A stretch of 64,000 nt of DNA from Deltaproteobacteria bacterium GWA2_38_16 (lineage in GTDB: Bacteria; Bdellovibrionota; JACOXK01; 2-02-FULL-40-11). The notes below the pieces were generated by a model, which was not told where the DNA came from, did no database searches, and saw nothing but the letters and a program-made list of their open reading frames with translations. This document shows positions 3,434 to 43,624 of the stretch, in pieces. How positions within the stretch are numbered: the stretch's first letter is position 1; each line of letters begins with the position of its first letter. The translations under genes were made by a program, and so were the position numbers. The stretch is taken from the NCBI GenBank assembly GCA_001797335.1, contig MGPE01000005.1:153013-217012 (forward strand). Direction: 5' to 3'.

Positions 3434-5210
3434 TTTTATGAGAGATGAAATCAGGATCTAAGGGTAATCCATCGGAATAGGCTATCGGAAAAATTTTAGG
3501 GGCAATGTCACAAAATTGTAATTTTATAAGAGTGGCCAATTGACTGTCTCGATTGTGATCAATGACAATGACTTTATCACAGGTTTTAATGAAATCTTTT
3601 ACTTCTTTATGGAAAGGGTAAGCTAAAACTCTAAGATATTTAAGAGATGTTTTCTTTATTTTTAAGTCATCCAGTGCTTCTTGAATGGCATGGTCATTGG
3701 TTCCTGCGCTAATAATTCCTATTTTAGCTTTGGCATCTCCTAAAACGATAGGTTTGGGTAAATATTGAGGGGCCGTATGAAATTTCTTTTCTAACCGAAG
3801 CATATTGGTTCTGTAAACGGTTGGATCTTCGGAATACCCTGCTATTTCTGTGTGTCCTGTCCCCCGTGTAAAATAAGCAGCCAGAGGATGTGGAGTGCCG
3901 GGTAGTGTTCGATAAGGGATTCCATCTTTATCAATATCTGCATATCGACCAAAGGATTTAATATTTTCTAAATCTTTAAGAGTGAGTACTTTTCCTCGAT
4001 CAAATGGACCTTTTAAATAATTAAAAGGTTCACTGGCCCAATAGTTCATTCCCAATTCTAAATCTGTCATGACAATAACGGGAGTTTGTAAACGATCAGC
4101 AATGTCGAATGATTTTGCTCCCAGCTCAAAGGCTTCTTTGACGGTGGCTGGGAATAAGAGAATATGTCTATTATCTCCATGAGAAGCAAAAGCACATTTT
4201 AAAATATCGGCTTGTTGGGTTCGTGTGGGCATCCCTGTAGAAGGTCCTACCCGTTGTACATTAACGATGACCACAGGAACTTCTGCATAATAGGCCAGTC
4301 CTAAAAATTCACTCATGAGTGAAATTCCAGGACCGGAGCTAGCCGTCATGGCACGCGCACCCATCCATCCTGCTCCAATGGCAGCACCAATGGCACAGAG
4401 CTCATCTTCTACTTGAATGACGGCTATTTTTTTCTTTTTTGTTTCAGGATCTGTTCGCAATCTTTGTCCATAGCTATCCATCGCTTCATTTAAAGAACTG
4501 GCCGGAGTAATGGGGTACCAAGCATCTACCGTACACCCTCCCATAATACACCCTAAAGCGGTGGCGGCATTGCCTTCGATGACAATCTGGGGTTTGGCGT
4601 TTTTGATTTTTTCATAAGAATAAGGATCTTTTTTGGGTAAATGTTCTTTGGCATATTGAATCCCCAGATCAATGGCTTTTAAATTGACATCAATGGCTTT
4701 TTGTTTTTTCTTAAAACTGTCTTCAATAACACTTCGTAAAATGTTTTTATCAAGGCCAAAAATTTCTGCCATCACTCCCACATAGAGCGTATTGGTGAGA
4801 AGCGATCTGAGTCTGGGGGTATCAAACGTATTTTTGGCAATCTTTGTAAGAGGAACAGGATAATAGGTAACGTTTTCTTTAGGAGTTCCAATGTTAAGAG
4901 TGGTTTCATCATAGATCACGACATCTCCTGGATGAACTTCTGCCAAGTCTTGACCCATAGAGGCAGGATTGACAGCTATGAGAACTTCTGAATGTCGTTT
5001 CATCGATTGATAGCCTTTGGGATTGGTCCGAATATAAAACCAGGTGGGAAGTCCTTGGATATTAGAAGGAAAAAGATTTTTAGCAGAGGTTGGAATACCC
5101 ATTCTGACCAAGGTTTTAAAAAGAATATTGTTTGCCGATTGGCTTCCCGTACCATTAATGGTTGCAATTTTAATGGTGAAGTTATTGACAATTTTTTGAG
5201 GCGTACTCAT
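3408..5210 (-). CDS. korA: 2-oxoacid:ferredoxin oxidoreductase alpha subunit, KorA-like
   Basis: 600 aa; N-terminal KIATINGTGSQSAN motif and length typical of KorA/OorA-type alpha subunits; translationally coupled to korB. Confidence 0.85.
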   Translation of the reverse strand: MSTPQKIVNNFTIKIATINGTGSQSANNILFKTLVRMGIPTSAKNLFPSNIQGLPTWFYIRTNPKGYQSMKRHSEVLIAVNPASMGQDLAEVHPGDVVIYDETTLNIGTPKENVTYYPVPLTKIAKNTFDTPRLRSLLTNTLYVGVMAEIFGLDKNILRSVIEDSFKKKQKAIDVNLKAIDLGIQYAKEHLPKKDPYSYEKIKNAKPQIVIEGNAATALGCIMGGCTVDAWYPITPASSLNEAMDSYGQRLRTDPETKKKKIAVIQVEDELCAIGAAIGAGWMGARAMTASSGPGISLMSEFLGLAYYAEVPVVIVNVQRVGPSTGMPTRTQQADILKCAFASHGDNRHILLFPATVKEAFELGAKSFDIADRLQTPVIVMTDLELGMNYWASEPFNYLKGPFDRGKVLTLKDLENIKSFGRYADIDKDGIPYRTLPGTPHPLAAYFTRGTGHTEIAGYSEDPTVYRTNMLRLEKKFHTAPQYLPKPIVLGDAKAKIGIISAGTNDHAIQEALDDLKIKKTSLKYLRVLAYPFHKEVKDFIKTCDKVIVIDHNRDSQLATLIKLQFCDIAPKIFPIAYSDGLPLDPDFISHKIEEAIAHG

Positions 5211-28637: not shown

Positions 28638-31091
28638 ATGACAGATAAAATAGATAAAAAAACACTCATTGTTCCTCTGCTTCCTCTCAGAGATATTATT
28701 GTTTTTCCTCACATGGTTGTTCCACTCTTTGTGGGAAGAGAAAAATCCATTCAAGCTCTTGAAAATGCTTTGGCTCAGAAAAAAGATATTCTTTTAGTAG
28801 CGCAAAGAAAGGCTAAAACCAATGATCCTACCGAAGAAGAAATTTATAAAGTAGGAACCGCGGGGGCCATTATACAGCTCTTAAGACTTCCCGATGGGAC
28901 TGTGAAAGTACTCATTGAAGGAAGACAGCGGGTGAGAATTCTTCGATATGTAGCACGAGATAAATTTTATGAAGTAGAAGTGGAAGAAATTCATGAGCGC
29001 GAAGAAAAAGGTCCTCAAGTGGAAGCCTTAATCCGAAGTGTAAAAGAAACCTTTGAAAGCTATGTAAAGCTCAATAAAAGAATTCCTCCTGAAATGCTCA
29101 TGACCATTGCTGCTATTGAAGGGGCTTCCAAACTGGCCGATACGGTGGTTTCTCATTTAAATCTTAAAATTGAAGAAAAACAAAATATCTTAGAAGTTGA
29201 AAATCCAAAAGAACGTTTAGAAAAATTATTGTCTTTAATTGAAGGTGAAATTGAGATTCTCCAAATTGAAAAGAAAATTAAAACCCGAGTTAAAAAGCAA
29301 ATGGAGAAGTCTCAGAAGGAATATTATCTCAATGAGCAAATGCATGCGATCCAAAAGGAATTGGGTGAACGAGATGAGTTTAAAGCGGAGATCGCAGAAA
29401 TTGAAAAGGCCTTAAAAGAAAAGAAACTTTCTGAAGAAGCCAGTAAAAAAGTTAAAAAAGAACTCCGAAAATTAAAAATGATGTCCCCCATGTCGGCAGA
29501 AGCAACGGTGGTGAGAAACTATATCGATTGGATTATTACCCTTCCCTGGGGATTTTACACTAAAGACAAAGATGATTTAAAAGCAGCACATCAAATTTTA
29601 GAAGAAGATCATTATGGGTTAAAGAAAATTAAAAATAGAATTTTAGAACATCTGGCCGTTCAATCTTTAGCCAATAAAGTCCAAGGACCGCTTTTATGTT
29701 TGGTGGGGCCACCAGGAGTTGGAAAAACGTCTTTAGCCCGTTCTATTGCTCGGGCTCTAGGGCGAAAATTTGTCAGGGCTTCTTTGGGGGGAGTTCGAGA
29801 TGAAGCCGAAATTCGAGGGCACCGGCGCACCTATATTGGAGCACTCCCTGGAAAGATTATACAATCGATGAAAAAAGCAGGGTCTCAAAATCCTGTATTT
29901 TTGTTAGATGAAATTGATAAAATGGCCATGGATTTTAGGGGAGATCCTGCCGCAGCGCTCTTAGAAGTATTAGACCCAGAACAAAATGTTGCATTTAATG
30001 ATCATTATTTAGAAATAGACTATGATTTATCTAAAATACTCTTCATTGCGACAGCCAATTCTATTCACAATATTCCTCGGCCTCTTTTAGATAGGATGGA
30101 AATGATTTTTGTGGCCGGTTATACTGATGAAGAAAAACTGCATATTGCGCAAAAATTTTTAGTGCCAAAACAAAAAGAACTCAATGGTCTCAAAGAATAT
30201 TCTATTAAGTTTTATGAAAAAGCAGTGCTTACCATTATTCATAAATACACTAAAGAAGCAGGAGTCAGAAATTTAGAAAGAGAAATTGCCAATATTTATC
30301 GAAAAATGGCTAAAAAGATTGTTGAAAAAGGAAAAAATAAAAAGGTGATGTTATCTGTTACTTCTAAAACGGTAGAAGAGCTTTTAGGGACAGAGCGGTA
30401 TCATTCTACTCAAACTGAAAATAAAGATGAGGTGGGGTTAACCAATGGATTGGCGTGGACAGAGATGGGGGGAGAACTTTTAGCGGTAGAGTGTACGATT
30501 ATGCCTGGAAAGGGAGCTGTCACTATTACTGGCCAATTGGGAGAGGTAATGCAAGAGTCTGCCCGGGCGGCTTTGAGTTATGTGCGAAGTCGAGGGGAAT
30601 CTTTAGGATTATCCCCTGATTTTAATCAAAAAGTAGATCTTCATCTTCATGTTCCTGAAGGGGCTATTCCTAAGGATGGTCCTTCGGCAGGGATTACTAT
30701 GGCGACCTGCCTTGTGTCTGCGCTTCTTCGCGTGCCGGTTCGAAAAGAAGTAGCTATGACGGGAGAAATTACACTTCGGGGAAGGGTGCTTCCCATTGGC
30801 GGGCTTAAGGAAAAATTATTAGCAGCTTATCGAGCGGGGATTAAAACCGTATTAGTTCCCAAAGAAAATGAACGGGATTTAAAAGATGTGCCCAAAAAGG
30901 TTTTAAGTTCTCTTAAAATTGTTTTAGTGTCTCATATGGATGAAGTGTTGAAGAAAGCGCTTTTAGTTAAAAATCCAGAACATATTTTCCAAGGCCCTGG
31001 TAATAAAAGTAAAAAAGAATTAAAATCTTCTTTTTATTTTAGGAAAAAGCCTACCTATATGACCCGTGCGCCACTCGTAGGAACTGCCTAG
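28638..31091 (+). CDS. lon: Lon protease
   Basis: 817 aa; Walker [10 protein letters not shown]; catalytic [19 protein letters not shown]. Confidence 0.95.
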
Positions 31092-31460
31092 TCATTCTGA
31101 GCGAAGCGAAGAATCTAATATCTTATTTTCTTTATTTACTTTGATGACTTTTGGAGTAAATGCCTTATATTCTTCCAAAGTTAAATCTGAAAAACTTGCT
31201 ATAATGACAATATCTCCCGGGCTGGCTTTTCGTGCAGCTGCACCATTAATACAGAGAGTGCCACTTAAGGGCGCAGCAGGAATAGCATACGTAGAAAATC
31301 GTTCACCATTGGTGACGTTATAAATTTCAATCCGCTCAAAAGGGACAATATCGGCCATTTCCATAAGATGGCTATCAATGGAAGCAGATCCTTCATAATT
31401 TAAATTACTATCGGTTACAGTCATGCGATGAATCTTAGATTTTAAAATTTGTCGGTACAT
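31092..31460 (-). CDS. panD: aspartate 1-decarboxylase
   Basis: MYRQILKSKIHRMTVTDSNLNYEGSASID (pyruvoyl-forming G-S site); 122 aa. Confidence 0.9.
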   Translation of the reverse strand: MYRQILKSKIHRMTVTDSNLNYEGSASIDSHLMEMADIVPFERIEIYNVTNGERFSTYAIPAAPLSGTLCINGAAARKASPGDIVIIASFSDLTLEEYKAFTPKVIKVNKENKILDSSLRSE

Positions 31461-31546
31461 GAAAAAGAGCTATACCACTCTGTAAAATTCTTGACAAGAG
31501 GAGCCAAAGTCGTGTTAGCTCAAAAAGATCTCAAGGAGAAATTTGA

Positions 31547-31882
31547 ATGAATAAAGCAGATATTGTGATGAAATTGGCAGAAGGTACTGATTTTAGTAAG
31601 GCTCAAGCACAAAAAATGCTGGATAGCTTAAATCAAATTGTTACCAATAGCTTAAAGCGAGGGGAAAAAGTGGTTCTTCCTGGTTTTGGGACTTTTTTAG
31701 TGAGTCAACGTGTCAGTCGGAAAGGAAGAAATCCTCATACCGGAGAAGCCATTCTTCTTAAAGCATCTAAGACACCTCGTTTTCGCGCTGGGAAAAACTT
31801 TAAAAATCTTTTAAATAATCAAAACTATACAATTTTTAGAGAAGACAAGGCCGCAGTGAGCGAAAAATCGAGGCGTACTTAA
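31547..31882 (+). CDS. hup: HU/IHF-family DNA-binding protein
   Basis: GFGTFLVSQRVSRKGRNPHTGEAI arm motif; C-terminal extension. Confidence 0.85.
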   Translation: MNKADIVMKLAEGTDFSKAQAQKMLDSLNQIVTNSLKRGEKVVLPGFGTFLVSQRVSRKGRNPHTGEAILLKASKTPRFRAGKNFKNLLNNQNYTIFREDKAAVSEKSRRT

Positions 31883-31943
31883 TGTACGTTGAGATTTTGA
31901 GCGAGCGAGAACGCCGTATTCTCTAAAAAGGGGATGGTTTTAT

Positions 31944-32019
31944 AGGCGGATAGCTCAGTTGGTAGAGCATCGCCCTTACAAGGCGAGGGTCGCAGGTTCG
32001 AGCCCTGTTCCGCCTACCA
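31944..32019 (+). tRNA. tRNA-Val (anticodon TAC)
   Basis: Cloverleaf folds by eye: acceptor AGGCGGA/TCCGCCT, anticodon loop CTTACAA, T-loop GTTCGAG, 3' CCA encoded. Confidence 0.85.
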
Positions 32020-32145
32020 ACTTCAGATACGATTTGCTCTACATCGTCAGACTCCTTCTTCCTCCCGCAGCGTACATGGAGTACGCCTTGGTCGGGCGTC
32101 GTCGTCTTCCTTGTATAGCTTGCGTCTCTTTGTTGGTTTGTGTTT

Positions 32146-32161
32146 GAGCCCTGTTCCGCCT
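32146..32161 (+). repeat. 16-bp direct repeat of the tRNA-Val 3' end (GAGCCCTGTTCCGCCT), att-like
   Basis: Exact copy of 32000..32015 located 146 bp downstream of the original. Confidence 0.6.
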
Positions 32162-32171
32162 GCCTCTAACT

Positions 32172-33107
32172 TTACTTTCTAACTTCTTTTAATCCTTCGG
32201 AGATAAGTATGCGGGTCATTTCAGATAGTTTGTCTATAACGGAAACTCTACCTTTTTGCATTTCATAAACGAGGGTTTTAAATGCAGGAGAATTTGTGTC
32301 TATTCTTATTGTTTCATTTAAGTCTGCCAGAGCGAGGCGATATCGTAAATAGTGGGTGATCGTAGTAGGAGTCACATGATCCGTGCGCATTAAAATATCT
32401 TCAACTAATCCTCTTGCTATATCGTTAGAGAACCATGTGAGATTTATTTGTTTTTCTCTAAAAATATGCCCAAATTTCTCAATGGCTCTTTGAAGAGAAG
32501 CCGGGACTTCGTCAGGTACTACTTCTAGCTGAAATAACTCTGTGGGTTCGACTGTTTGTACATCTAGACGGTTTCTTACAATAATGACTCTCGCCCCATC
32601 TTTAAGGACATAGGATTCATTAGGTTTTTTTTCTAATGTTCTTGCCAGAGGGCCATCCGAATGAGTATAAAAATGTTCAATAGCTTGATATAAAATAGAA
32701 GAAACCGCTGTGTTGCTTTCCCAAGCAGAAATGGATTCTTTTAAATTAAATGTTACTCGAAATATTTTCTGACCTGCCCTGCCACTGTTTCTAACTTCAC
32801 ATAAAATAGAATTATTTTCATCAGCTATGAGGATATCTGTACCATCTGGTTTTTCAGTAATTTGGATGGCCGATCGTAAGGATGTGCCATGATTAACGGC
32901 AGTAGCTCCAACTCCCCAGGTTTTAAAGGCGCTTAAAGAGTGAAAAAATACTCCCTGAATGGATGTATTATCTGGTGTCCAATCTAATACTATTGAGGCT
33001 GGAATGGCCTGTGTCCAAGCAGTGGTGGTGATAAGTAGGATCAGAGAACTTAAAATAATTTTTCTCATAAAGTGTTCTTTCTTAACAAGGATACTGGGCT
33101 CTGTCAA
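32172..33107 (-). CDS. hypothetical secreted protein
   Basis: Internal Met followed by signal peptide MRKIILSSLILLITTTAWTQA (likely true start); lies between the two tRNA genes. Confidence 0.45.
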   Translation of the reverse strand: MTEPSILVKKEHFMRKIILSSLILLITTTAWTQAIPASIVLDWTPDNTSIQGVFFHSLSAFKTWGVGATAVNHGTSLRSAIQITEKPDGTDILIADENNSILCEVRNSGRAGQKIFRVTFNLKESISAWESNTAVSSILYQAIEHFYTHSDGPLARTLEKKPNESYVLKDGARVIIVRNRLDVQTVEPTELFQLEVVPDEVPASLQRAIEKFGHIFREKQINLTWFSNDIARGLVEDILMRTDHVTPTTITHYLRYRLALADLNETIRIDTNSPAFKTLVYEMQKGRVSVIDKLSEMTRILISEGLKEVRK

Positions 33108-33197
33108 TCGGGGGGGCTTATAAAAATATATTGAAGCCTCTTTAAATTCTGTGTATCAATAACTTTTTAGGCATGTGACTATAGGTATGATTTTTTG

Positions 33198-33217
33198 TGG
33201 GACCGTAGTTCAGCTGG
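33198..33217 (+). repeat. 5' fragment of tRNA-Asp (acceptor and D-arm only), duplicated 120 bp upstream of the intact gene
   Basis: GGGACCGTAGTTCAGCTGG identical to the first 19-20 nt of tRNA-Asp; downstream sequence does not complete a cloverleaf. Confidence 0.6.
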
Positions 33218-33317
33218 CCAAAGGTCACAAGCGTGTGACCATTCAAATCTGTAATAACCAGCTGGAAACGAAGTTTGTAGATATTTGGAAATTTAGTAAG
33301 TTAGGTATAAGTTTTTT

Positions 33318-33394
33318 GGGACCGTAGTTCAGCTGGTTAGAACGCCTGCCTGTCACGCAGGAGGTCGCGAGTTCGAGTCTCGTCGGTCCCGCCA
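33318..33394 (+). tRNA. tRNA-Asp (anticodon GTC)
   Basis: Acceptor GGGACCG/CGGTCCC, anticodon loop CTGTCAC, T-loop TTCGAGT, 3' CCA encoded. Confidence 0.85.
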
Positions 33395-33415
33395 GATAAT
33401 TTCATTCAAAAAAAA

Positions 33416-33444
33416 CGAGCTCTAGATTTCAGAGCTCGTTTTTT
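33416..33444 (+). terminator. Rho-independent terminator after tRNA-Asp
   Basis: CGAGCTCT-AGATTTC-AGAGCTCG hairpin followed by TTTTTT. Confidence 0.6.
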
Positions 33445-33538
33445 CGTGGTCAGACTTGTATACTTCGAATGTAAATGAGGTTTCGACTTTTCTTTTTTAA
33501 TACGGCCCTACTCTACGCGCTTTTTGTTTACAGGGAAT

Positions 33539-33577
33539 ATGATTTGTGTCATATTTTCAGCACATGATTTATGTCAT
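33539..33577 (+). promoter_or_regulatory. two FNR/CRP-family-like palindromic boxes upstream of nirK
   Basis: ATGATTTGTGTCAT (33539..33552) and ATGATTTATGTCAT (33564..33577), each ATGA-N6-TCAT, 25 bp apart, 25-60 bp upstream of the nirK ATG. Confidence 0.4.
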
Positions 33578-33601
33578 TTTTCTGCCATCAAGGAGGAAAT
33601 A

Positions 33602-35008
33602 ATGAAAAAAATATTTTTGATCATTATCGGTATCGGATGTTTTGGAAATCTTTTATCGTGTAAGTCATCTTTGCCTATTGAAAAAGCTGTTCTAACTTTT
33701 GCTCCAGAAGTGCCGCCGGTGATTACGCGGACATCTCCAGCAAAAGTGATTGTTGATCTAGAGGTTCAAGAAGTGGTCAATCAACTGGCCGATGGTGTTG
33801 AATATACGTTTTGGACATTTGGGGGGAAAGTTCCTGGGAAATTTATTCGAGTTCGAGAAGGAGATATCGTAGAGTTTCATTTGGCCAACCATCCTGCCAA
33901 TAAGCTTCCTCATAATATTGATCTTCATGCAGTGACAGGGCCTGGTGGGGGCGCCACCAGTTCCTTTACAGCGCCTGGACATAAATCCCAATTTACATTT
34001 ACAGCGTTAAACGCGGGTCTCTATGTATATCACTGTGCCACGGCTCCTGTAGGGATGCATGTGGCTAATGGCATGTATGGGCTTATTTATGTGCAACCCA
34101 AAAAAGCGCTGCCTAAGGTGGATCGTGAATATTATGTTATGCAAGGAGATTTTTATACCAAGGGTGTTTTTAGTGAAAAAGGGCTTCAGCCCTTTTCCAT
34201 GGAAAAGGCTATCGATGAAAAACCAAGCTATGTGGTGTTTAATGGGGCGGTGAATTCATTGGTGGGGGATAATGCACTGAAAGCCAAAGTAGGAGAAACC
34301 ATTCGTTTATTTGTGGGAAATGGGGGGCCGAATTTGGTTTCGTCATTTCATGTTATTGGAGAAATTTTTGATAAAGTGTATCAAGAAGGAGGGACTTCCA
34401 CTGTTCAGGAAAATGTTCAAACTACTTTAGTTCCCGCTGGAGGATCAGCCATTGTTGAATTTAGGATGGATGTTCCTGGAACTTTTATTTTAGTTGATCA
34501 CAGTATCTTTAGAGCATTTAATAAAGGAGCTTTGGGAATGCTTAAAGCGGAAGGGCCAGAAAATAAAGTCATTTATTCTGGAAAAGAGGTGGATGAAAAT
34601 TATATTGAGAGCCAAGCACATCCCCAAGCAGGGTTAAAATCAGAACCGTCCCCTTTAAAAGCCGGGCGGAGTGGGGCTACTATTTTTGAAAATGTATGCG
34701 CCATGTGTCATCAACAAGAAGGACAAGGCCTTTCTGGCGTATTTCCTCCTTTGGCAAAATCAGACTATCTTTCTCATTTAGCCGTTAGAGATCGAGAGAA
34801 ATTAGTATCTATTATTCTAAAAGGGTTATCGGGAAAAATTACCGTGAATGGAAAAGAGTATAATAATGTGATGACGCCTGTTTCAGGACTTTCTGATGAA
34901 GAATTAGTAACCATCTTAAATTATATTATCAGTTCCTGGGGAAATTCTGGAAAACCATTTACTTTAGAGGAAGTGAAAAAAGCGAAAGAAAAAATTGAAT
35001 CGAGATGA
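33602..35008 (+). CDS. nirK: copper-containing nitrite reductase with C-terminal cytochrome c domain
   Basis: Cupredoxin ligand motifs (HNIDLHA; [16 protein letters not shown]); C-terminal heme motif CAMCH; likely start at ATG 33602 with AGGAGG RBS (ORF track starts 33524). Confidence 0.85.
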
Positions 35009-36150
35009 AAAAAAATATTTTCAGCCATTTTTTCTTGGCTGCTATTTTCATAGAGGGGGGAACATTTACCCCCTTCTATGGTTTGAATAAAGATCAAAAA
35101 AGTGTATCCGTAAAATCTTTTCGTATAGATGATGCTCCTGTAACCAAGCAGCAATTTTTTAATCATGTCTCTAAGCGGGGGAATGTGCCGGTAACCTATG
35201 TGTCGTGGGATGATGCACAAGCGTATTGCAAGGCTCGGGGAGGCAGACTCCCCACTGTTTTTGAGTGGGAATATGTAGGCAGTGCCAGTGAGACTCAAAA
35301 AGATGCTTCGAAGGATCCAAAATTTATTCAAAAACTTTTAGAGTGGTATTCAAAGCCCGTTGATGAAGCTAAAATTCCAGAGGTTAAGCAGGGAAAACCC
35401 AATGTTTGGGGAGTGTACGACATGCATGGAGTGGTGTGGGAATGGGTCTATGATTTTAATAGTAGCTTTGTCACCGGAGATAATCGTCAGGATAAAGATA
35501 AACTCAAAGATTTGTTTTGTGGAGCAGGAGGAGAAGGTGCTCAAGACCGAATTAATTACGCAGCCTTTATGCGATATGCATTGAGAAGTAGTTTAAAAGC
35601 ATCTTATAAACTTATGAATCTAGGATTTCGGTGTGCTTATGATGAAAAAAATCAGGACGAGAATATTCAAACGTCTCTTGATTTATCTCCCTATCGCTCT
35701 CATTTTGTGGTGATCACGATGACGTATACGAGCTGCCAATCGGCTTGTCCTTTGATTATAAAAAAATTAAAAACCATTTTAAAAGCATTAGGGGGAGATA
35801 TCCAAAATATTGAATTTGTGGTGGTGACGTTTGATCCAACTATTGACACAGCTTCTCATCTTTTAGAATACCAAAAAAAACAAGGTCTTGATTTTCAAAA
35901 TTGGCATTTTTTAAGCGGTTCCGAAGAAGAAACCCGAAAGATGTCTTTATTTTTAGATATTTCTTATCAAAAAGATGCTACGACGGGGCACTTTATGCAC
36001 AGCAATAAAATTATTCTTTTAAATCCTGAGGGTCAAAAGGTAGTAACCCTAGATGGTTTGGATTCTGATATTGAGCCACTTTTAAAAGCCATGGGTAAAA
36101 CACCCAAAGCTTCTTTTTTCAAAAAACTTAAAAATTATTTTACCTTTTAA
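35005..36150 (+). CDS. NirV-like FGE-sulfatase-domain protein fused to a Sco1/SenC copper chaperone domain
   Basis: N-terminal [38 protein letters not shown] (FGE/SUMF1-like); C-terminal [10 protein letters not shown] (Sco CxxxCP) and thioredoxin-like region; ATGA overlap with nirK. Confidence 0.7.
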
Positions 36151-36625
36151 ATTGTGTATTGCTCGGTTCGTCTACGCAGGAAGAACAGCAGGGCATGGAT
36201 TTTAAAAATTTAGTGGGGCCAAACTTAAGAGCGAGAAGCATATTTTTTACAAAGATCAAAATTCCTAAAAATTGTAAAAGCCCAAAAACAAAAAAAAGAA
36301 GGTTCCAAGGAAGAGAGGAATCATAAAAAATATTTTGTAAGAGCGGTACGGTGATCATTCCCATCATTCCAATATTAGCCAGCCATAAGTGAAGCCTTTG
36401 ATAATGATCGGGGACAAGAGGACTTGATGCAAAGCGGGGGATGACATGATACGCCAGACCAAAAATCATCATCGAAATCCACCCAATGGCCATCGTATGG
36501 GCATGGGGAAAATGAATGATTGTTTTCCAAGTAGGAAAAGAAGCCATTACTGTGCCCATAAGGGCACCTACCAATAAATAAAGAAGACTTGAAATGACAA
36601 ATAATCTAGAATAGGGAGACATCAT
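36140..36625 (-). CDS. hypothetical His-rich integral membrane protein
   Basis: About 4 predicted TM helices; conserved-looking His in HFPHAH and AYHVIPRF. Confidence 0.4.
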   Translation of the reverse strand: MMSPYSRLFVISSLLYLLVGALMGTVMASFPTWKTIIHFPHAHTMAIGWISMMIFGLAYHVIPRFASSPLVPDHYQRLHLWLANIGMMGMITVPLLQNIFYDSSLPWNLLFFVFGLLQFLGILIFVKNMLLALKFGPTKFLKSMPCCSSCVDEPSNTQFKR

Positions 36626-36661
36626 TAAGTTTTATTTTTAACATAGGGAGTCCATAAAAAC

Positions 36662-37402
36662 ATGATCAATGTCATATTTTTGCCAGTTTTTTTCTTTGTG
36701 GCTGCTCTTATTTACTCAATGGTAGGGCATGCAGGTGCTTCAGCCTATTTGGCCATCATGGCTCTTTTTGGAATATCAACAGAGGTAATGAAACCCGTAG
36801 CCTTGGTTTTAAATATTTTAGTGGCAGCGATTGCCAGTTTTAAATTTTATCGATCAGGGCATTTTTCATGGTCTTTATTTTGGCCTTTTGCATTGACCTC
36901 CATTCCTTTTTCTTTTTTAGGAGGATTTTTAATACTGTCTCCTCTATTTTATAAGCCCATCGTTGGGATTATTCTCTTATATGCGGCGTATCATCTCTTT
37001 TTCTTTTCTGCGCTCTCCGCTTCTTTAGAAATAGCCCAACCCTTACGACGGTGGTTACTATTGTTTTTGGGATCAGGCATTGGATTTTTGTCTGGGTTAA
37101 TTGGGGTAGGGGGAGGGATTTTTTTAAGTCCCCTTCTTTTATGGAGGAGGTGGGCTACGGTTCGGCAAACAGCAGCGATATCTTCTCTTTTTATTCTCGT
37201 GAATTCTATTTCCGGTTTAGGGGGGCATCTGTTTCGGGTGAATTCTTTGCCTTCTCAATTGCCGCTGTGGTTAGTGAGCGTTGCTCTGGGAGGATGGATA
37301 GGAGCAGAATATGGAAGCCGTCATCTGTCCCCCCTTTTTTTAAAGCGATGTTTGGCTTTGGTTTTATTAATAGCAGGACTTAAATGCCTCTTTTTTGTCT
37401 AA
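36662..37402 (+). CDS. TauE/SafE-family anion permease
   Basis: Duplicated 4-TM units with glycine-rich GLIGVGGGIFLSPLL motif. Confidence 0.7.
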   Translation: MINVIFLPVFFFVAALIYSMVGHAGASAYLAIMALFGISTEVMKPVALVLNILVAAIASFKFYRSGHFSWSLFWPFALTSIPFSFLGGFLILSPLFYKPIVGIILLYAAYHLFFFSALSASLEIAQPLRRWLLLFLGSGIGFLSGLIGVGGGIFLSPLLLWRRWATVRQTAAISSLFILVNSISGLGGHLFRVNSLPSQLPLWLVSVALGGWIGAEYGSRHLSPLFLKRCLALVLLIAGLKCLFFV

Positions 37403-37405
37403 ATC

Positions 37406-37417
37406 TGATCAGTATCA
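37406..37417 (+). promoter_or_regulatory. FNR-like box (TGAT-N4-ATCA) upstream of the molybdoenzyme alpha gene
   Basis: cTGATcagtATCAt directly after the TauE stop codon, about 65 bp upstream of the likely alpha-subunit start. Confidence 0.4.
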
Positions 37418-37435
37418 TTTTTATCTCTACCGAAA

Positions 37436-40400
37436 TTGTGTAAATCTGCCACTTTAAGGCTTAAAAAATATGGAGGAAATATGACATATATCAGCCGAAG
37501 AAAGTTTTTAAAAGGTTTGGGGGCAGTAGGGACGTTATTAACCTCAGAAACTGTCTTTGGATCTCCTCTTCGATATTTTAAGCCTACCCATGTAGAAAAT
37601 CCCTTAGCATTTTATCCCAACCGGGATTGGGAAAAAGTATATCGAAATATTTTTAAACCTGATTCCACGTTTGTATTTTTGTGTGCTCCCAATGATACCC
37701 ATAACTGTCTTTTAAAAGCGTATGTCAAAAATAATGTGGCGGTTCGAATAGGTCCTACTTATGGATATGGAAAAGCACAAGATCTCTATGGGAATCAATC
37801 GTCTCATCGGTGGGATCCCAGGCTCTGTCAAAAAGGATTGGGATTAGTACGTAGGGTCTATGGGGATCGTCGTTTAAAATCCTCAATGATTCGACAAGGA
37901 TTTAAACAATGGGTAGAGGCTGGATTTCCCAGAGATCCCAAAACTGGAAAGCCGGATTTAAAATATTTTAATCGGGGACGAGATAAGTGGCTCAGAATTT
38001 CTTGGGATGAAGCATTTCAATTATCTGCCAAAGCTTTTTATAATATTGCACAAACCTATTCAGGCAAAGAAGGAGAAAAACGTTTAAAACTTCAAGGTTA
38101 TGATTCTGCGATGATTGAAGCGTTAGAAGGAGCAGGAACACAAACAATTAAAATCAGAGGGGGAATGGCATTTTTAGGATCTACACGAATTTTTGGAATG
38201 TATCGATTTGCCAATATGCTTGCGCTTTTAGATAGCAAAATTCGAGGAGTTGGGCCAGATCACGCCGTAGGAGCCAGAGGGTGGGATAGTTATAGTTGGC
38301 ATACAGATCTTCCACCAGGGCATCCCATGGTGACGGGTACTCAAACCAATGATTTTGATTTATTTGCCGTAGAACATTCAAAGCTTGCTATTGCCTGGGG
38401 GATGAATTGGATTACGACAAAAATGCCAGATTCCCATTGGTTGACGGAAGCCAGGCTCAAGGGAACTAAAACCGTGTCCATCACGGTTGAATACAGTGCA
38501 ACGGCTTCTAAAACCGATGACGTGATTGTTATTCGTCCAGGAACAGATCCAGCCTTTGCATTGGGATTGGCCCAAGTGATTATATCTGAAAAACTCTATG
38601 ATTTGGAGTTTGTATCCAAAAATACGGATCTTCCTTTTCTTATTCGATTAGATACCTTGGAGCCTCTTCGTCCCCAAGATATTATTCCGGGATATGTAGA
38701 GCCTCCTTTAAAAAATATTGTCTTTCTTAAAAAAGGAGAAAAACCCCCGGCAACCTCTACCCATCGCATTCAATATGCCACGGAAGAAATGAAGGATTCT
38801 TTTAAACCGTTTGTGATTGTTGATCAAAAAACCAAAAAATTAACACCGGTGACGAGAGACTCGTTCAGATCGGCAGATTTGTTTTCCAGTCGAACGGTGA
38901 AACTTTTAAATGGGAAGGAAATAAAAGTACAAACCGTGTTTGGGTTAATGAGAGACTATGTAAATCAAAATTTTACGCCTAAACAAACCGAACTTATTAC
39001 TGGTGCTCCTGAAAAAGCAATTATCTTATTAGCCAAACAAATTGCGGCTAATCCAGAAAAAACACTTTTTGTGACGGGTATGGGTCCAAACCAATTTTTT
39101 AATTCTGATTTAAAAGATCGGGCCATCTTTTTTGTGGCAGCCTTAACGCGAAATATTGGATTTCCAGGGGGTAATGTAGGAAGTTATGCTGGAAATTATA
39201 GAGCAGCATTGATTGGGGGAGAGCCCGTATTTGCTGCCGAAGATCCCTTTCATGTGCAACTCGATCCCAAAGGTAAGGTCATTGTTAAAAAATATACGCA
39301 TTATGAATCACTTCATTACTTTAATTATGGTGAGAGGCCGCTTAGGGGAGGGAAAACATTATTTACAGGGAAAAGTCATCTTCCAACTCCTACCAAAGCC
39401 ATGTGGCTCAATAATTCTAACTCTGTCATCGGAAATATTAAGTGGCATTTTGATGTGGTGAATAACACGCTTCCAAAGCTAGAGTTTATTGCATTTGCAG
39501 ATTGGTGGTGGACGGGTTCTTGTGAGTATGCTGATATTGTTTTTGGCGTCGACAGTTGGGCGGAGTTTAAAGTGCCTGATATGTGTGCTTCCTGTACCAA
39601 TCCTTTCCTTCATGTTTATCCCAGAACTCCTCTTCCCAGAATTTTTGATACGAAATCTGATATCGAAGTGATTGCAGGAGTATCAAAAGCGTTAGCCGAA
39701 GTAACCAATGATGCTCGAATGGTTGACATGTGGAAATTTGTTCATGAAGGGAATGTGCAAACATATCTTCAACGGATTATGGATCACTCTTTTACGCTCA
39801 AAGGGTATGATATTGATGATCTAGAGAAAAAAGCCCAAGAAGGAATTCCAACGCTCATGAATAATCGAACCTATCCTAGAATCTCTTCTTTTGAGCAGGC
39901 CACAGAAAAAGAACTTTGGTTTACGAAATCAGGTCGATTGGAATTTTATCGTCCTGAAAAAGAATTTATTGAGCATGGTGAAAATATGGTGGTGTATAGA
40001 GAACCTGTTGATTCAACGCCCTATGAACCCAATGTCATTGTAGCACATCCTCATGTGGCCATTCGTCCTAAAGGGCCCGAAGCACATGGGATGCAGTCGA
40101 GTGATCTTTCGTGTGAAAGTCGCCAAGTGCGAAATGTGATCAAAACGCCAGAAGAAGTAGTCAAAACAGAGCATCCTCTGCGTTCCAAAAAATTTACTCA
40201 CATTTATCATACGCCCAAATATCGACATGGAGCACACACGACTCCTGTTGATACTGATTTTACGGGAGTATGGTTTGGCCCTTTTGGTGATATTTATCGG
40301 CACGACAAACGTCAAGCCTCCGTGACCGAAGGATATGTAGATATAAATCCTTTAGATGCCAAAGAACTGGGGATTGAAGATGGGGATTATGTGCATATAG

Positions 40401-40924
40401 ATGCTGATCCCCAAGATCGTCCTTATAGAGGATGGAAAAAAGGGACTGAGTCTTATCATGTGGGGAGACTCCTTCTCAGGGCTCGTTATTATCCAGGGAC
40501 TCCCAGGGGAGTAGCTCGGACTTGGCACAATATGTATGGAGCTACTTTTGGAAGTGTGAAAGCTCATGAAACCCGGCCCGATGGACTCGCTAAAAATCCA
40601 GAGACAAATTACCAATCCATGTATCGCTATGGCAGTCATCAAAGTGCCACCCGGGCATGGCTACGGCCAACACTTATGACAGAAACATTGGTGAGAAAAG
40701 AAATGTTTGGAAATCAAATGGGCAAAGGATTTGCTGCAGATATTCATTGTCCCGTCGGAGCGCCTCGGGAAGCGTTTGTTAAAATTTCTAAAGCTGAGAA
40801 CGGGGGATTGGGAGGAAAAGGAAAGTGGGGGCCGGCACAGCTTGGATTTCGTCCCACCTATGAAAATGTAGCGATGAAGGAATATCTTAAAGGAAAATTT
40901 ATGAAACGAAAGAAGGAGATGTAA
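37436..40924 (+). CDS. Tat-exported molybdopterin oxidoreductase alpha subunit, type II DMSO reductase family (nitrite oxidoreductase NxrA-like / periplasmic NarG-like)
   Basis: Twin-arginine signal SRRKFLKG (probable start at Met16, about 37481); FS0 motif C-x3-D-x3-C...C followed by YVKNN (cf. NarG H-x3-C-x3-C..YVKNG); about 1150 aa. Confidence 0.8.
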
Positions 40925-40927
40925 AGC

Positions 40928-42058
40928 ATGGCAACAGTAAAAAATTGGCAACTGGATCGCCAAATGGATTATCCCTATGAAGAGCACCGACCTAAAAAAC
41001 AATGGGCCATTGTTTTTGATTTAAATAAATGCATTGGATGTCAAACCTGTTCCTTGGCCTGTAAAACCACTTGGACCAGTGGCAAAGGCCAAGAATATAT
41101 GTTTTGGAATAATGTGGAAACAAAACCTTGGGGCAGCTATCCCCTGGCGTGGGATGTCCGAGTACTTGAAAAATTGGGATATCAACACTGGGATAAAAAT
41201 AAACCCTATTCCGGAAAAACCGTTTTTGAAGCTGCTGATCCAGCAGAAAAAGCGGTTCATTTTAATCCTCAAGATGAAGATTGGATGTATCCAAACCGAG
41301 GAGAAGATGATTGTACAGGAAATGTCTCGGGTGGAAAATATTTGACATTACCCCACGACAATTGGTTTTTTTATCTTCCCAGAACCTGTGCACATTGTAC
41401 CTATCCTGCCTGTTTAGCAGCCTGCCCCAGAAAAGCGATTTATAAACGAGAAGAAGATGGTATTGTTCTGATCGATCAATCACGATGCAAAGGATACCAA
41501 GAATGTGTCAGGGCCTGTCCCTATAAAAAGTCTATGTATAATCCCTATACCCGAGTGAGTGAAAAATGTGTGGGGTGTTATCCGGCGGTAGAAGAGGGAA
41601 AGCAACCCATGTGTGTTCAAAATTGCATTGGGAAAATTCGTATTATGGGATTTATTAATCCTCCCTGGAATGCCAGAGAAGATAATCCTGTTGATTATCT
41701 GGTTCACAAAAAAGAATTAGCACTCCCGTATTATCCTCAGTTGGGACTTGAGCCGAATATTTATTATGTTCCTCCCATTCATGCCAATCGGGAGTATTTA
41801 ATTCAGATGTTTGGCCCAAAAGTAGAGGAGGTCATTGAAAATTATAAAAAAATTAAAAATGATCCTATTACCCAGGGACTTTTAGTGCTGATGGGATCTA
41901 CGGATAATATTATTCATCGTTTTAAAGTTTCTGAGGGATCAGCATATGCTTTTGATGAAAAAGGGGATCAAATTGTGAGAGTTCCAGTCACAGAGCCTTT
42001 ATTTATTCGAACCCCTTGGGATGAAAAACTGGGCGTTATTCGAAATAATACGCCCTAA
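40928..42058 (+). CDS. iron-sulfur beta subunit of the type II DMSOR-family enzyme (NxrB/NarH-like)
   Basis: Four ferredoxin-type Cys clusters (CIGCQTCSLAC; CAHCTYPACLAACP; CKGYQECVRACP; CVGCY...C); no signal peptide; immediately follows the alpha gene. Confidence 0.8.
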   Translation: MATVKNWQLDRQMDYPYEEHRPKKQWAIVFDLNKCIGCQTCSLACKTTWTSGKGQEYMFWNNVETKPWGSYPLAWDVRVLEKLGYQHWDKNKPYSGKTVFEAADPAEKAVHFNPQDEDWMYPNRGEDDCTGNVSGGKYLTLPHDNWFFYLPRTCAHCTYPACLAACPRKAIYKREEDGIVLIDQSRCKGYQECVRACPYKKSMYNPYTRVSEKCVGCYPAVEEGKQPMCVQNCIGKIRIMGFINPPWNAREDNPVDYLVHKKELALPYYPQLGLEPNIYYVPPIHANREYLIQMFGPKVEEVIENYKKIKNDPITQGLLVLMGSTDNIIHRFKVSEGSAYAFDEKGDQIVRVPVTEPLFIRTPWDEKLGVIRNNTP

Positions 42059-42962
42059 GAAAGAAGGTGTGAGGGGAATGATGAAGAAAATTTATGCTTT
42101 AATGGTTGTAAGTTATCTTTTATGGGGCCAGGGACTTTGGGCCGAAGGACTTATTGCAAAATATGTTAAAGAGGATCTCTCTAAACTAAATCTTGAAGCA
42201 CTGTTTTGGAAAGAGGTTACTCCAGAGACCATTCAGCTGATAGCTCAGCCCATGGTGGCCCCACGTCCTCAAAAAACATTGACGGAAAAACTTTGGGTAC
42301 AAGTGGTTCATAATGGAGAGTGGATGGCGTTTCGATTTAAATGGAAAGACAAAGAGAAGAGCGAAGCAGGACCTTTGGGTAAATTTTCGGATGCAGTGGC
42401 CATTCAATTTCCAGTGAAAGAAAAAGAAGTGCCCCCGATTTTTATGGGAGCCAAGGATAGCCCCGTTCATATTTTGCATTGGAGAGCACAGTATCAAAAA
42501 GACAAAGAAAAAGGATTCCAAACGATGAAAGATATTTATCCCAATATGAATATGGATATGTATCCTTTAGAATTTGCCAATCAATATTCTCATGATGAGA
42601 TGTTGAAAAAAATCACTGAGGAACAAAGAGAAGTGTTTGTGTCTGGAAAATCTGCTGGAAACCCTCAATCATTTCAAAAAATAAAAGGGGTGGATGAGAT
42701 GATGGCCGAAGGTTTTGGTTCCAGTTCTGTCATTGAAAATACGAGAGCAGAAGCTCAGGGGATATGGCAAAAAAAAGGAAAAGAAGGAGAATGGGTAGTG
42801 CAAATTTCTCGGCCCTTAGCTTTAGAAGGGGGATCTATCTTGAAAGCAGGGCAAAAAAGTTTTATGGCCTTTGCTGTGTGGCAGGGCGGAGAAGGGGAAG
42901 TGGGATGTCGAAAATCTGTGACGATGACCTGGGTACCCTTAATAATTGAGGATAAAAAATGA
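42021..42962 (+). CDS. periplasmic gamma subunit (heme b, EbdC/NxrC-like)
   Basis: Sec signal MMKKIYALMVVSYLLWGQGLWAEG (probable start at internal Met about 42078); position and size fit a gamma subunit. Confidence 0.6.
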   Translation: MKNWALFEIIRPKKEGVRGMMKKIYALMVVSYLLWGQGLWAEGLIAKYVKEDLSKLNLEALFWKEVTPETIQLIAQPMVAPRPQKTLTEKLWVQVVHNGEWMAFRFKWKDKEKSEAGPLGKFSDAVAIQFPVKEKEVPPIFMGAKDSPVHILHWRAQYQKDKEKGFQTMKDIYPNMNMDMYPLEFANQYSHDEMLKKITEEQREVFVSGKSAGNPQSFQKIKGVDEMMAEGFGSSSVIENTRAEAQGIWQKKGKEGEWVVQISRPLALEGGSILKAGQKSFMAFAVWQGGEGEVGCRKSVTMTWVPLIIEDKK

Positions 42963-43624
42963 TGCCTAAACCTACGGATTTTATCGTTGCTTCTTTTTTG
43001 ACCGCATATCCAGATAACTATTTTTGCGATAGCTTAAAGGACATCTTAAATTGTCAAAAACCCAAAGGTATTGATTCTTTCTATTTGGAGCTGAAATCTT
43101 ATATAGAAACACCTCAAAAACTAAATAATTTGCGTTCTGATTATATTGATATTTTTGATCATGGAAAAGAAATCAACTCTCCGTATGAAACGTCTTATGG
43201 GCCTTATAAGGGGATGAATAAGACCATCGATCTTTCAGATTTGATGGGATTTTACAAAGCGTTTGGATTTGAATTGGGAGTGGATGATAAAAGGCGAGAT
43301 ATGGCAGATCATGTTTCTGTTGAGCTTGAATTTTATGCGCTGTTGCTCATGAAAGAAGCCTATTTGAAAAAACACAATGATAAAGAAGGAACTGAAATTG
43401 TTTTAGATGCGTGTAAGAAATTTTTAAAAGATCATTTAGGAAGATTTATTTCAGCTATTGGCAATAGGCCCGCTGTTTTACAACATTCTTTTTATTCGAA
43501 AGTATTTGAGTGGAGTGCTGTTCTTGTTGCCGAAGAATGCAAAAGATTAAATGTTACGCCTACGCCTTTGTCTTACGATTCTCTGATATCCGAATCTGAA
43601 GATTTTAACTGTCGTTTTAAATAA
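42959..43624 (+). CDS. TorD/NarJ-family redox enzyme maturation chaperone
   Basis: 221-aa cytoplasmic protein, fourth gene of the operon; DHVSVELEFYALL resembles TorD/NarJ-family helices. Confidence 0.55.
   Translation: MMPKPTDFIVASFLTAYPDNYFCDSLKDILNCQKPKGIDSFYLELKSYIETPQKLNNLRSDYIDIFDHGKEINSPYETSYGPYKGMNKTIDLSDLMGFYKAFGFELGVDDKRRDMADHVSVELEFYALLLMKEAYLKKHNDKEGTEIVLDACKKFLKDHLGRFISAIGNRPAVLQHSFYSKVFEWSAVLVAEECKRLNVTPTPLSYDSLISESEDFNCRFK

Follow-up and report, generated by a model that had tools for sequence, protein, structure and literature searches.

A NirV-Sco fusion protein encoded directly downstream of nirK in Deltaproteobacteria bacterium GWA2_38_16

The DNA analyzed here, referred to as the window, is a stretch of 64,000 nt from contig MGPE01000005.1 (positions 153,013 to 217,012, forward strand; assembly GCA_001797335.1) of Deltaproteobacteria bacterium GWA2_38_16. 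It carries a copper nitrite reductase gene, nirK, directly followed by an open reading frame (ORF), nirV-sco, whose product joins a NirV-type domain resembling the formylglycine-generating enzyme (FGE) to a Sco (SCO1/SenC) domain of the copper chaperone type. The single nirV-sco ORF is genuine and not an artefact. Survey and tree data indicate that nirV-sco fusions are recurrent behind this class of nirK, and that the fusion in the window is a lineage-specific event of its own. As the best-supported mechanism, the protein is rather likely to be a copper-maturation factor dedicated to NirK.

Domain content and authenticity of the nirV-sco reading frame

The presence of an FGE-like and a Sco domain in one polypeptide, as proposed in the initial annotation, was upheld by a Pfam search of the 381-aa protein, in which both domains scored above their cut-offs. 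FGE-sulfatase (PF03781) was detected at aa 56-211 (E 1.8e-27, 97.1 bits vs a cut-off of 23.3) and SCO1-SenC (PF02630) at aa 230-344 (E 9e-19, 68.2 bits vs 22.8; profile positions 19-133 of 134). The annotated single reading frame, with a start codon overlapping the nirK stop codon as ATGA, was likewise seen in the sequence (Table 1). The same 4-nt overlap with nirK occurs in relatives L002-L004, and nirV-sco is probably coupled translationally to nirK through it. No promoter or terminator signal above chance was detected between nirK and nirV-sco, nor an Fnr/NnrR box or a separate promoter.

The identical 381-aa protein was retrieved by exact look-up as OGP05489.1 ("hypothetical protein", Deltaproteobacteria bacterium GWA2_38_16) and under three further accessions, and it is encoded on at least 23 contigs of ENA and JGI assemblies from many samples. 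The DNA of the 1146-nt gene was identical to the window in 7 independent contigs, which originated from different samples and assemblers. Because of this identity and the public protein, the ORF does not represent a sequencing or assembly error. In favor of an artefactual joining of two genes by such an error, the closest relatives have two genes and one public contig carries an in-frame TGA and was called as two genes. This contig, k141_1085454 of ENA ERZ27254845 (MEGAHIT; L001), was the source of the 100%-identical database representative in the first homology search, which was only 242 aa long and comprised the Sco domain alone. Over 12.7 kb it equals window positions 29422-42150 apart from two positions, both G>T. 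The change at 35239 turns Gly79 (GGA) into TGA, so that the gene calls are split into 78 aa and 242 aa, and the change at 30129 turns a Glu codon of lon (GAA) into TAA, by which the lon gene call is split too. The 7 other contigs have G at 35239 and do not extend to the lon site; an intact 817-aa Lon is public on 10 contigs. Since 7 independent contigs match the window and both changes are G>T, a typical error class, k141_1085454 was regarded as an outlier, and both of its stops are most likely assembly or library errors.

Two further explanations were rejected. Recoding of TGA as Gly (code 25), considered because the TGA of k141_1085454 replaces a conserved Gly codon, disagrees with the second change, which is a TAA at a Glu codon in lon, with the use of TGA as the terminator of 16 of the 52 long ORFs, and with the G found at the site in the 7 other contigs. 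A simple frameshift joining two genes disagrees with the +1 frame at the junction, which yields merely a 24-aa peptide, and with the Sco homology, which goes on in the NirV frame from QDEN onward. Moreover, the junction is about 32 codons shorter than in the split relatives, which is not a 1-nt slip. A joining error, which the initial annotation had named as a point to be checked, was therefore excluded, and it is extremely improbable that the single ORF is an artefact.

FGE structures matched the NirV half in a PDB sequence search (E ~1e-10) and matched the N-terminal half of the model by fold. The domain has its fold and Pfam family in common with FGE/SUMF1 (6MUJ, 1Y1E), but it lacks both cysteines of the catalytic copper-binding pair (CxxxxC), the positions of which are occupied by D181 and A187 in a HMMER alignment to copper-bound 6MUJ; A187 corresponds to a nearly invariant Ala across the NirV-type family. 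It also differs from FGE in that the N-terminal part of the PF03781 profile is unmatched (positions 86-254 of 255 only are covered) and in that no sulfatase is found nearby. The latter holds for the ORFs flanking nirV-sco, and the scan of the remaining ORFs covered the 25 most frequent of 64 families. Since the cysteine pair is missing, the alignment indicates that the NirV domain is not a formylglycine-generating enzyme. The NCBIfam equivalog models of the related enzymes EgtB (46 bits vs 360), SenA (44 vs 420), and PvdO (24 vs 500) all scored below their cut-offs.

The NirV-type family, represented by 120 sequences, has one invariant cysteine, C172, in an LFCGAG motif. The window NirV domain keeps all invariant residues, including H141, C172, R190, and R209, and also the conserved W145-E146-W147, R161, and R194. 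The predicted local distance difference test score (pLDDT) of the C172 loop was below 50 in the models of both the window protein and its relative P0003. All 119 aligned relatives carry 27-41 extra residues (W..D..YL..W) at K57/R58, and the window protein alone has none. The segment of about 32 aa that is gone from the window holds five positions conserved at 90% or more, and in the model of P0003 it is well ordered (pLDDT 96-98). Otherwise, the conserved NirV positions differ only in F54H, F69D, and A70D, which flank the deletion and replace hydrophobic by polar residues. This pattern suggests a surface repaired after the loss of a packed element rather than decay. The same segment is short in Sinorhizobium meliloti NirV too.

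The nirV gene was reportedly described in Rhodobacter sphaeroides by Jain and Shapleigh in 2001 and is said to have been known since then as the gene after nirK. For S. meliloti, the pSymA record of which is unannotated, the NirV ORF after nirK was read from the DNA. It showed 22% identity to the window domain (BLASTP E 1e-4; hhalign probability 93.4%, E 2.5e-7). Both are FGE-fold proteins encoded right after nirK, and both have a Cys-Gly at the position of window C172 as well as a GFR motif; the comparison suggests that the window NirV is at most a distant relative of the alphaproteobacterial NirV. The 45 kb around S. meliloti nirK that were examined yielded no Sco-like match, and S. meliloti NirK has no cytochrome c domain, unlike the window NirK. 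FGE-like plasmid hits in Neorhizobium and Sulfitobacter were rejected as nirV because linkage to nirK was not found; the sparsely annotated Neorhizobium hit has no nirK in its annotation, and the Sulfitobacter hit adjoins a sulfatase-like gene. In Neisseria gonorrhoeae (L095; NZ_CP119142.1, listed as a plasmid), a NirV-like region with 41% identity to the window domain lies at positions 4001-4678, directly 3' of aniA, with no annotated feature there and no adjacent Sco. This region deserves attention in that AniA is loaded there by AccA, not by Sco.

The Sco half was matched by PDB entry 3me7 at E 4.7e-13, and for the C-terminal half of the model Foldseek gave template modeling scores (target) of 0.65-0.74 and root-mean-square deviations of 1.9-3.0 Å to 3me7, 4hde, 1wp0, 2k6v, and 6n5u. 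In the AlphaFold2 model of the fusion (120 homologues; mean pLDDT 82.5), the pLDDT exceeded 90 over aa 231-370; the predicted template modeling score was 0.62. The Sco copper ligands C244, C248, and H332 are all present, align with those of 3me7, and are kept in all fused homologues. The fold, the CxxxC motif, and the distal His are thus common to the window domain and the Sco/SenC/PrrC chaperones (Bacillus subtilis Sco, 1XZO; human SCO1, 1WP0; Bradyrhizobium japonicum ScoI, 4WBJ; Aquifex aq_2194, 3ME7). The window Sco domain departs from these in being linked to an FGE-like domain, in having NirK instead of a cytochrome oxidase as the genomic partner, and in lacking an N-terminal membrane anchor or signal of its own that would place it in the periplasm. 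The N-terminal region of about 32 residues of the split L002 Sco, signal peptide included, is gone in the fusion. Because this signal region is absent, the Sco domain would be exported only via the N-terminus of the fusion. The first hydrophobic stretch of the fusion contains its most hydrophobic 13 residues. N-termini are equally short in relatives of the same clade, whereas other relatives have clear signal peptides. The fusion may be exported by its N-terminal hydrophobic segment.

The ORF upstream was identified as NirK by TIGR02376 (354 bits vs a cut-off of 296), with the Pfam domains Cu-oxidase_3, Cu-oxidase_2, and Cytochrom_C. Its closest PDB entry was 3ZIY, the cytochrome-c-tethered RpNiR (E 7.9e-189, aa 28-462 aligned), which has a C-terminal cytochrome c domain like that of the window NirK. 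Two earlier starts exist besides the likely one given in Table 1, namely 33524 for the mechanical ORF and 33539 for the public gene call. The N-terminus (33602-33661, 20 aa) is lipoprotein-like, with a lipobox LLSC, as in Neisseria AniA. In ENA ERZ28564412 scaffold_46123 (L011), nirK was called as two genes (226 aa and 257 aa), and the sequence upstream does not stay in register with that of the window, suggesting an indel or frameshift in that assembly.

Distribution and origin of the fusion

For the survey, one genome per species was taken, the best 80 loci (L015-L094) were kept, and each was examined for whether NirV and Sco share one open frame and for what lies upstream. nirK was directly upstream in 78 of the 80 loci, and a cytochrome c domain was present on the NirK side in 78 of them. 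A Sco domain followed in 78 as well, being fused in 18, adjacent and split in 59, and 1.4 kb away in one. The loci span Bacteroidota, Verrucomicrobiota, Planctomycetota, Bdellovibrionota, Gamma- and Betaproteobacteria, and others. Fused loci were found in Verrucomicrobiota, Planctomycetota, and metagenome-assembled genomes labelled Brocadiaceae, Steroidobacteraceae, and Longimicrobium, and split loci in many cultured Flavobacterium species, Winogradskyella, Fulvivirga, Kangiella, Moraxella osloensis, Paraglaciecola arctica, Chthoniobacter flavus, and Bdellovibrionota. At the protein level, most of the best 120 hits have both Pfam domains; they are about 430 aa long, 36-42% identical, and largely from Verrucomicrobia such as Prosthecobacter. 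Fused homologues are named "SUMF1/EgtB/PvdO family nonheme iron enzyme" at NCBI. On plasmid pAZKH of Azoarcus sp. KH32C, RefSeq lists nirK, then a "formylglycine-generating enzyme family protein", then a "SCO family protein".

The initial annotation had described nirV as commonly a separate gene after nirK and Sco proteins as separate copper chaperones. The survey indicates that the nirV-sco fusion is recurrent and not unusual, and that sco is the normal third gene, after nirV, of this NirK class. The gene after sco encodes an outer-membrane porin of the Alginate_exp family in 22 of the 73 loci for which it was recorded; NnrS accounts for 6 loci, hemerythrin for 4, and COX1-family proteins (two of them NorB) for 3. 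In Azoarcus sp. KH32C it is a histidine kinase. Because this gene varies, nirK is the sole constant partner of nirV-sco. The Alginate_exp porin was observed mostly in Flavobacteriia, and its association with nirK clusters may relate to the passage of nitrite or nitric oxide. Neither domain family is new, and fused proteins are already plentiful in databases under generic names; within the literature searched, no paper describing a nirK-nirV-sco module or a NirV-Sco fusion was found.

The fused proteins of Verrucomicrobiota and Planctomycetota match that of the window in their domains and domain order, are likewise encoded right behind a cytochrome-c-fused nirK, and have the Sco CxxxC…H and the NirV invariants (H141, C172, R190, and others) in common with the window. 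In the two Verrucomicrobia fused loci that were inspected, the gene lies directly after the cytochrome-c-fused nirK and before nnrS. These proteins are longer (420-450 aa) than that of the window, have an evident signal peptide and a linker of about 52 instead of 33 residues, and keep the NirV segment of 27-41 aa. Their identity to the window protein is only 36-42%, and in the trees they represent a separate fusion event.

The closest relatives of the window gene are split, namely L002 and L003 (GCA_040960175.1 and GCA_040960315.1). By tblastn, L002 is 62% identical to the window in NirV and 61% in Sco (68% in the alignment). The split module of L002-L004 shares with the window the nirK ATGA overlap and the flanking COX1-like and TauE genes, whereas L002 and L003 have two genes instead of one. 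In both, nirV ends with ...GFRCAYDL*, and the start of sco, which is read in another frame, lies 11 nt before this stop; Sco has a signal peptide of its own, MIFRRGLLCFLMIMVAVSAFA. Compared with these relatives, about 32 codons (the signal peptide and about 10 residues) are gone at the window junction, and the frame runs straight into the first Sco strand. The window linker is the shortest among the fused homologues, with 33 residues from GFRCA to CxxxC against a median of 52 (119 relatives).

Neighbor-joining trees were built separately for the NirV and Sco domains, and split and fused states were reconstructed by Fitch parsimony. The two trees were congruent and placed the window in a clade of eight or nine sequences, in which all other two-domain members are split; several records of this clade are labelled Bdellovibrionota or Bdellovibrio-like. 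Parsimony returned a split ancestor and 4-5 state changes overall. Because all relatives in the clade with both domains are split, the trees identify the window fusion as an independent, lineage-specific event. The gene would have arisen in this lineage by fusion of two neighboring accessory genes of nirK. With the Sco signal lost, the shortest linker, and the NirV segment gone, the alignments characterize it as a trimmed or minimized form.

Genes flanking nirK and nirV-sco

The genes on either side are listed in Table 1. The COX1-like protein resembles helices of heme-copper oxidase subunit I (CcoN positions 303-395) and contains an HAH motif. Its gene is convergent with nirV-sco, with an 11-nt overlap, and is syntenic in L002-L004 and L008-L014; in the closest relatives, it encodes 156 aa next to sco. 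Its membership of the nirK-nirV-sco module is uncertain.

The nirK cluster is separated from the molybdoenzyme genes by the TauE/SafE gene, which is also syntenic in L002-L004, where it is preceded by a ThiF-rhodanese gene. The molybdoenzyme is NXR-like or similar to periplasmic Nar. Its gamma subunit is of the heme b, EB_dh-like type, and none of the four proteins reached the NCBIfam cut-off of NarG, Ebd, or the other models. The molybdenum cofactor biosynthesis genes MoaC, MoaE, and MoeA are also present in the window. The 311-aa ORF upstream of nirK was found in the same place in all contigs of Deltaproteobacteria bacterium GWA2_38_16.

Table 1. Positions in the window of nirK, nirV-sco with its component features, and flanking genes.
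Feature	Position	Strand	Remarks
311-aa ORF upstream of nirK	32172..33107	-	Opposite strand to nirK; no Pfam/NCBIfam match
nirK, three-domain copper nitrite reductase with C-terminal cytochrome c domain	33602..35008	+	Likely ATG start 33602
nirV-sco fusion gene	35005..36150	+	Single ORF, ATG start, 381 aa
ATGA, nirV-sco start codon overlapping nirK stop (TGA)	35005..35008	+	Read directly: TCGAGATGAAAAAA
Short hydrophobic N-terminus (16 aa)	35005..35052	+	Sole candidate export signal or membrane anchor for both domains
FGE-like (NirV-type) domain, aa 14-213	35044..35643	+	PF03781; FGE structures by sequence and fold
K57/R58 site without the NirV segment found in relatives	35173..35178	+	
Gly79 (GGA)	35239	+	G in window; T (TGA) in one public contig
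Cys172	35518..35520	+	Invariant in 120 NirV-type sequences
Junction and linker, aa 214-229 (16 aa)	35644..35691	+	Sco signal peptide of split relatives missing
Sco (SCO1/SenC) thioredoxin-like domain, aa 230-362	35692..36090	+	PF02630, PDB 3me7, Foldseek, pLDDT
CxxxC (C244-QSA-C248), Sco copper site	35734..35748	+	
His332 (MHSN), third Sco copper ligand	35998..36000	+	
Membrane protein, 161 aa, about 4 helices, heme-copper oxidase subunit I-like (COX1-like)	36140..36625	-	PF00115, 33 bits vs cut-off 34.8
TauE/SafE-family membrane protein	36662..37402	+	PF01925, 115 bits
Type II dimethyl sulfoxide reductase-family molybdoenzyme, four genes	37436..43621	+	Alpha (1162 aa, twin-arginine-like N-terminus), beta, gamma, chaperone

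Possible role in NirK maturation

In the mechanism that we consider rather likely, the NirV-Sco fusion would act as a copper-maturation factor dedicated to NirK. The protein, translated from the nirK transcript, would be exported by means of its one N-terminal signal. Its Sco domain would then bind copper by Cys-Cys-His and hand it to apo-NirK or, alternatively, keep the NirK thiol(s) in the right redox state, and the NirV domain would serve as the NirK-specific partner, either docking on NirK or relaying copper via the loop of the invariant Cys172. Both copper binding by the Sco domain and NirK as the client are predictions from sequence. The idea of a NirK-dedicated maturation factor is supported by the conservation of nirK-nirV-sco across phyla, by the intact copper ligands of Sco, and by the repeated fusion of nirV and sco, since recurrent fusion points to a physical or functional partnership. 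In N. gonorrhoeae, AccA loads the type 1 copper (T1Cu) site of AniA, which is a precedent for a NirK needing a periplasmic copper chaperone (PMC13006917). AccA, a member of the PCuAC family, is a functional analogue of unrelated fold and family.

Several points weigh against this mechanism. The classical clients of Sco are CuA/CuB oxidases and not cupredoxin T1/T2 sites. As a Sec signal, the N-terminus of the fusion would be short, and its residues 13-16 are modeled in a strand of the fold. The absence of the 32-aa segment with its five highly conserved residues from the window NirV could mean reduced function, and the Cys172 loop, a possible relay, was modeled with low confidence. In addition, NirV has been described as non-mandatory for NirK maturation (PMC4770552), and its function as unknown (PMC10356946).

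Among the alternatives, the Sco domain could, instead of donating copper, be a thiol-disulfide oxidoreductase that holds the T1Cu cysteine of NirK, or the CXXCH cysteines of its fused cytochrome c domain, in the reduced state while the enzyme matures, with copper arriving by another route. The thioredoxin fold of Sco is compatible with such a role, Foldseek also returned peroxiredoxins, ResA, and a TlpA-ScoI complex, and the module occurs with a cytochrome-c-fused NirK in 78 of 80 loci; in Thermus, moreover, Sco is a reductase for CuA and copper is delivered by PCuAC. However, His332, the distal ligand that only copper-binding Sco proteins have, is kept throughout, the best structural matches are copper-binding Sco proteins, and the gonococcal nirV follows a NirK without a cytochrome c domain, so that an oxidoreductase role is considered unlikely. 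It is improbable that the client is instead the neighboring heme-copper-type membrane protein (the COX1-like protein of 161 aa here, NnrS or NorB elsewhere), with the nirK linkage reflecting shared regulation. The known Sco clients are heme-copper oxidases, a COX1-like gene adjoins the fusion here and in the close relatives, and NnrS follows the fused gene in Verrucomicrobia, but the downstream gene varies across the survey, down to the histidine kinase of Azoarcus, whereas nirK upstream is near-universal.

The fusion could also be a decaying or neutral remnant, encoding a non-exported and non-functional protein. Such a reading would account for the unique 32-aa deletion, which removes five conserved residues, for the loss of the Sco signal peptide, and for the atypically short N-terminus, and it would agree with the reported dispensability of NirV (PMC4770552). 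Against it, the gene runs for 1146 nt without stops or frameshifts, the other conserved residues of both domains are kept, and both domains are modeled confidently; the sole three NirV substitutions at conserved positions (F54H, F69D, and A70D) flank the deletion and are hydrophobic-to-polar, as expected of a repaired surface, and the deleted segment is short in S. meliloti NirV too. A remnant is therefore very improbable. Within the NirK-dedicated copper maturation favored here, we tentatively propose, as a possibility only, that NirV is the NirK-specific adaptor of a two-part periplasmic copper delivery system, docking on NirK and relaying Cu(I) from Sco via Cys172. If true, this would account for the joint occurrence of nirV and sco after cytochrome-c-fused nirK in different phyla and for their fusion on at least three or four occasions. 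In the window, the trimmed fusion would then represent the minimal functional unit, and the lost 32-aa element may be the contact surface between NirV and Sco when they are separate.

In summary, the near-universal nirK(cyt c)-nirV-sco unit, the repeated fusions, and the minimized fusion of the window together make a Rosetta-stone argument that NirV may take part in the maturation of the NirK copper center. The proposal is of moderate reach, since the enzyme whose accessory factors are at issue is well understood and public databases already contain the fused architecture, though without a name. It fits the recent AccA/AniA evidence that a NirK can need a periplasmic chaperone, and a role of NirV in copper maturation would be directly testable in cultured Flavobacterium, Azoarcus, or Chthoniobacter.

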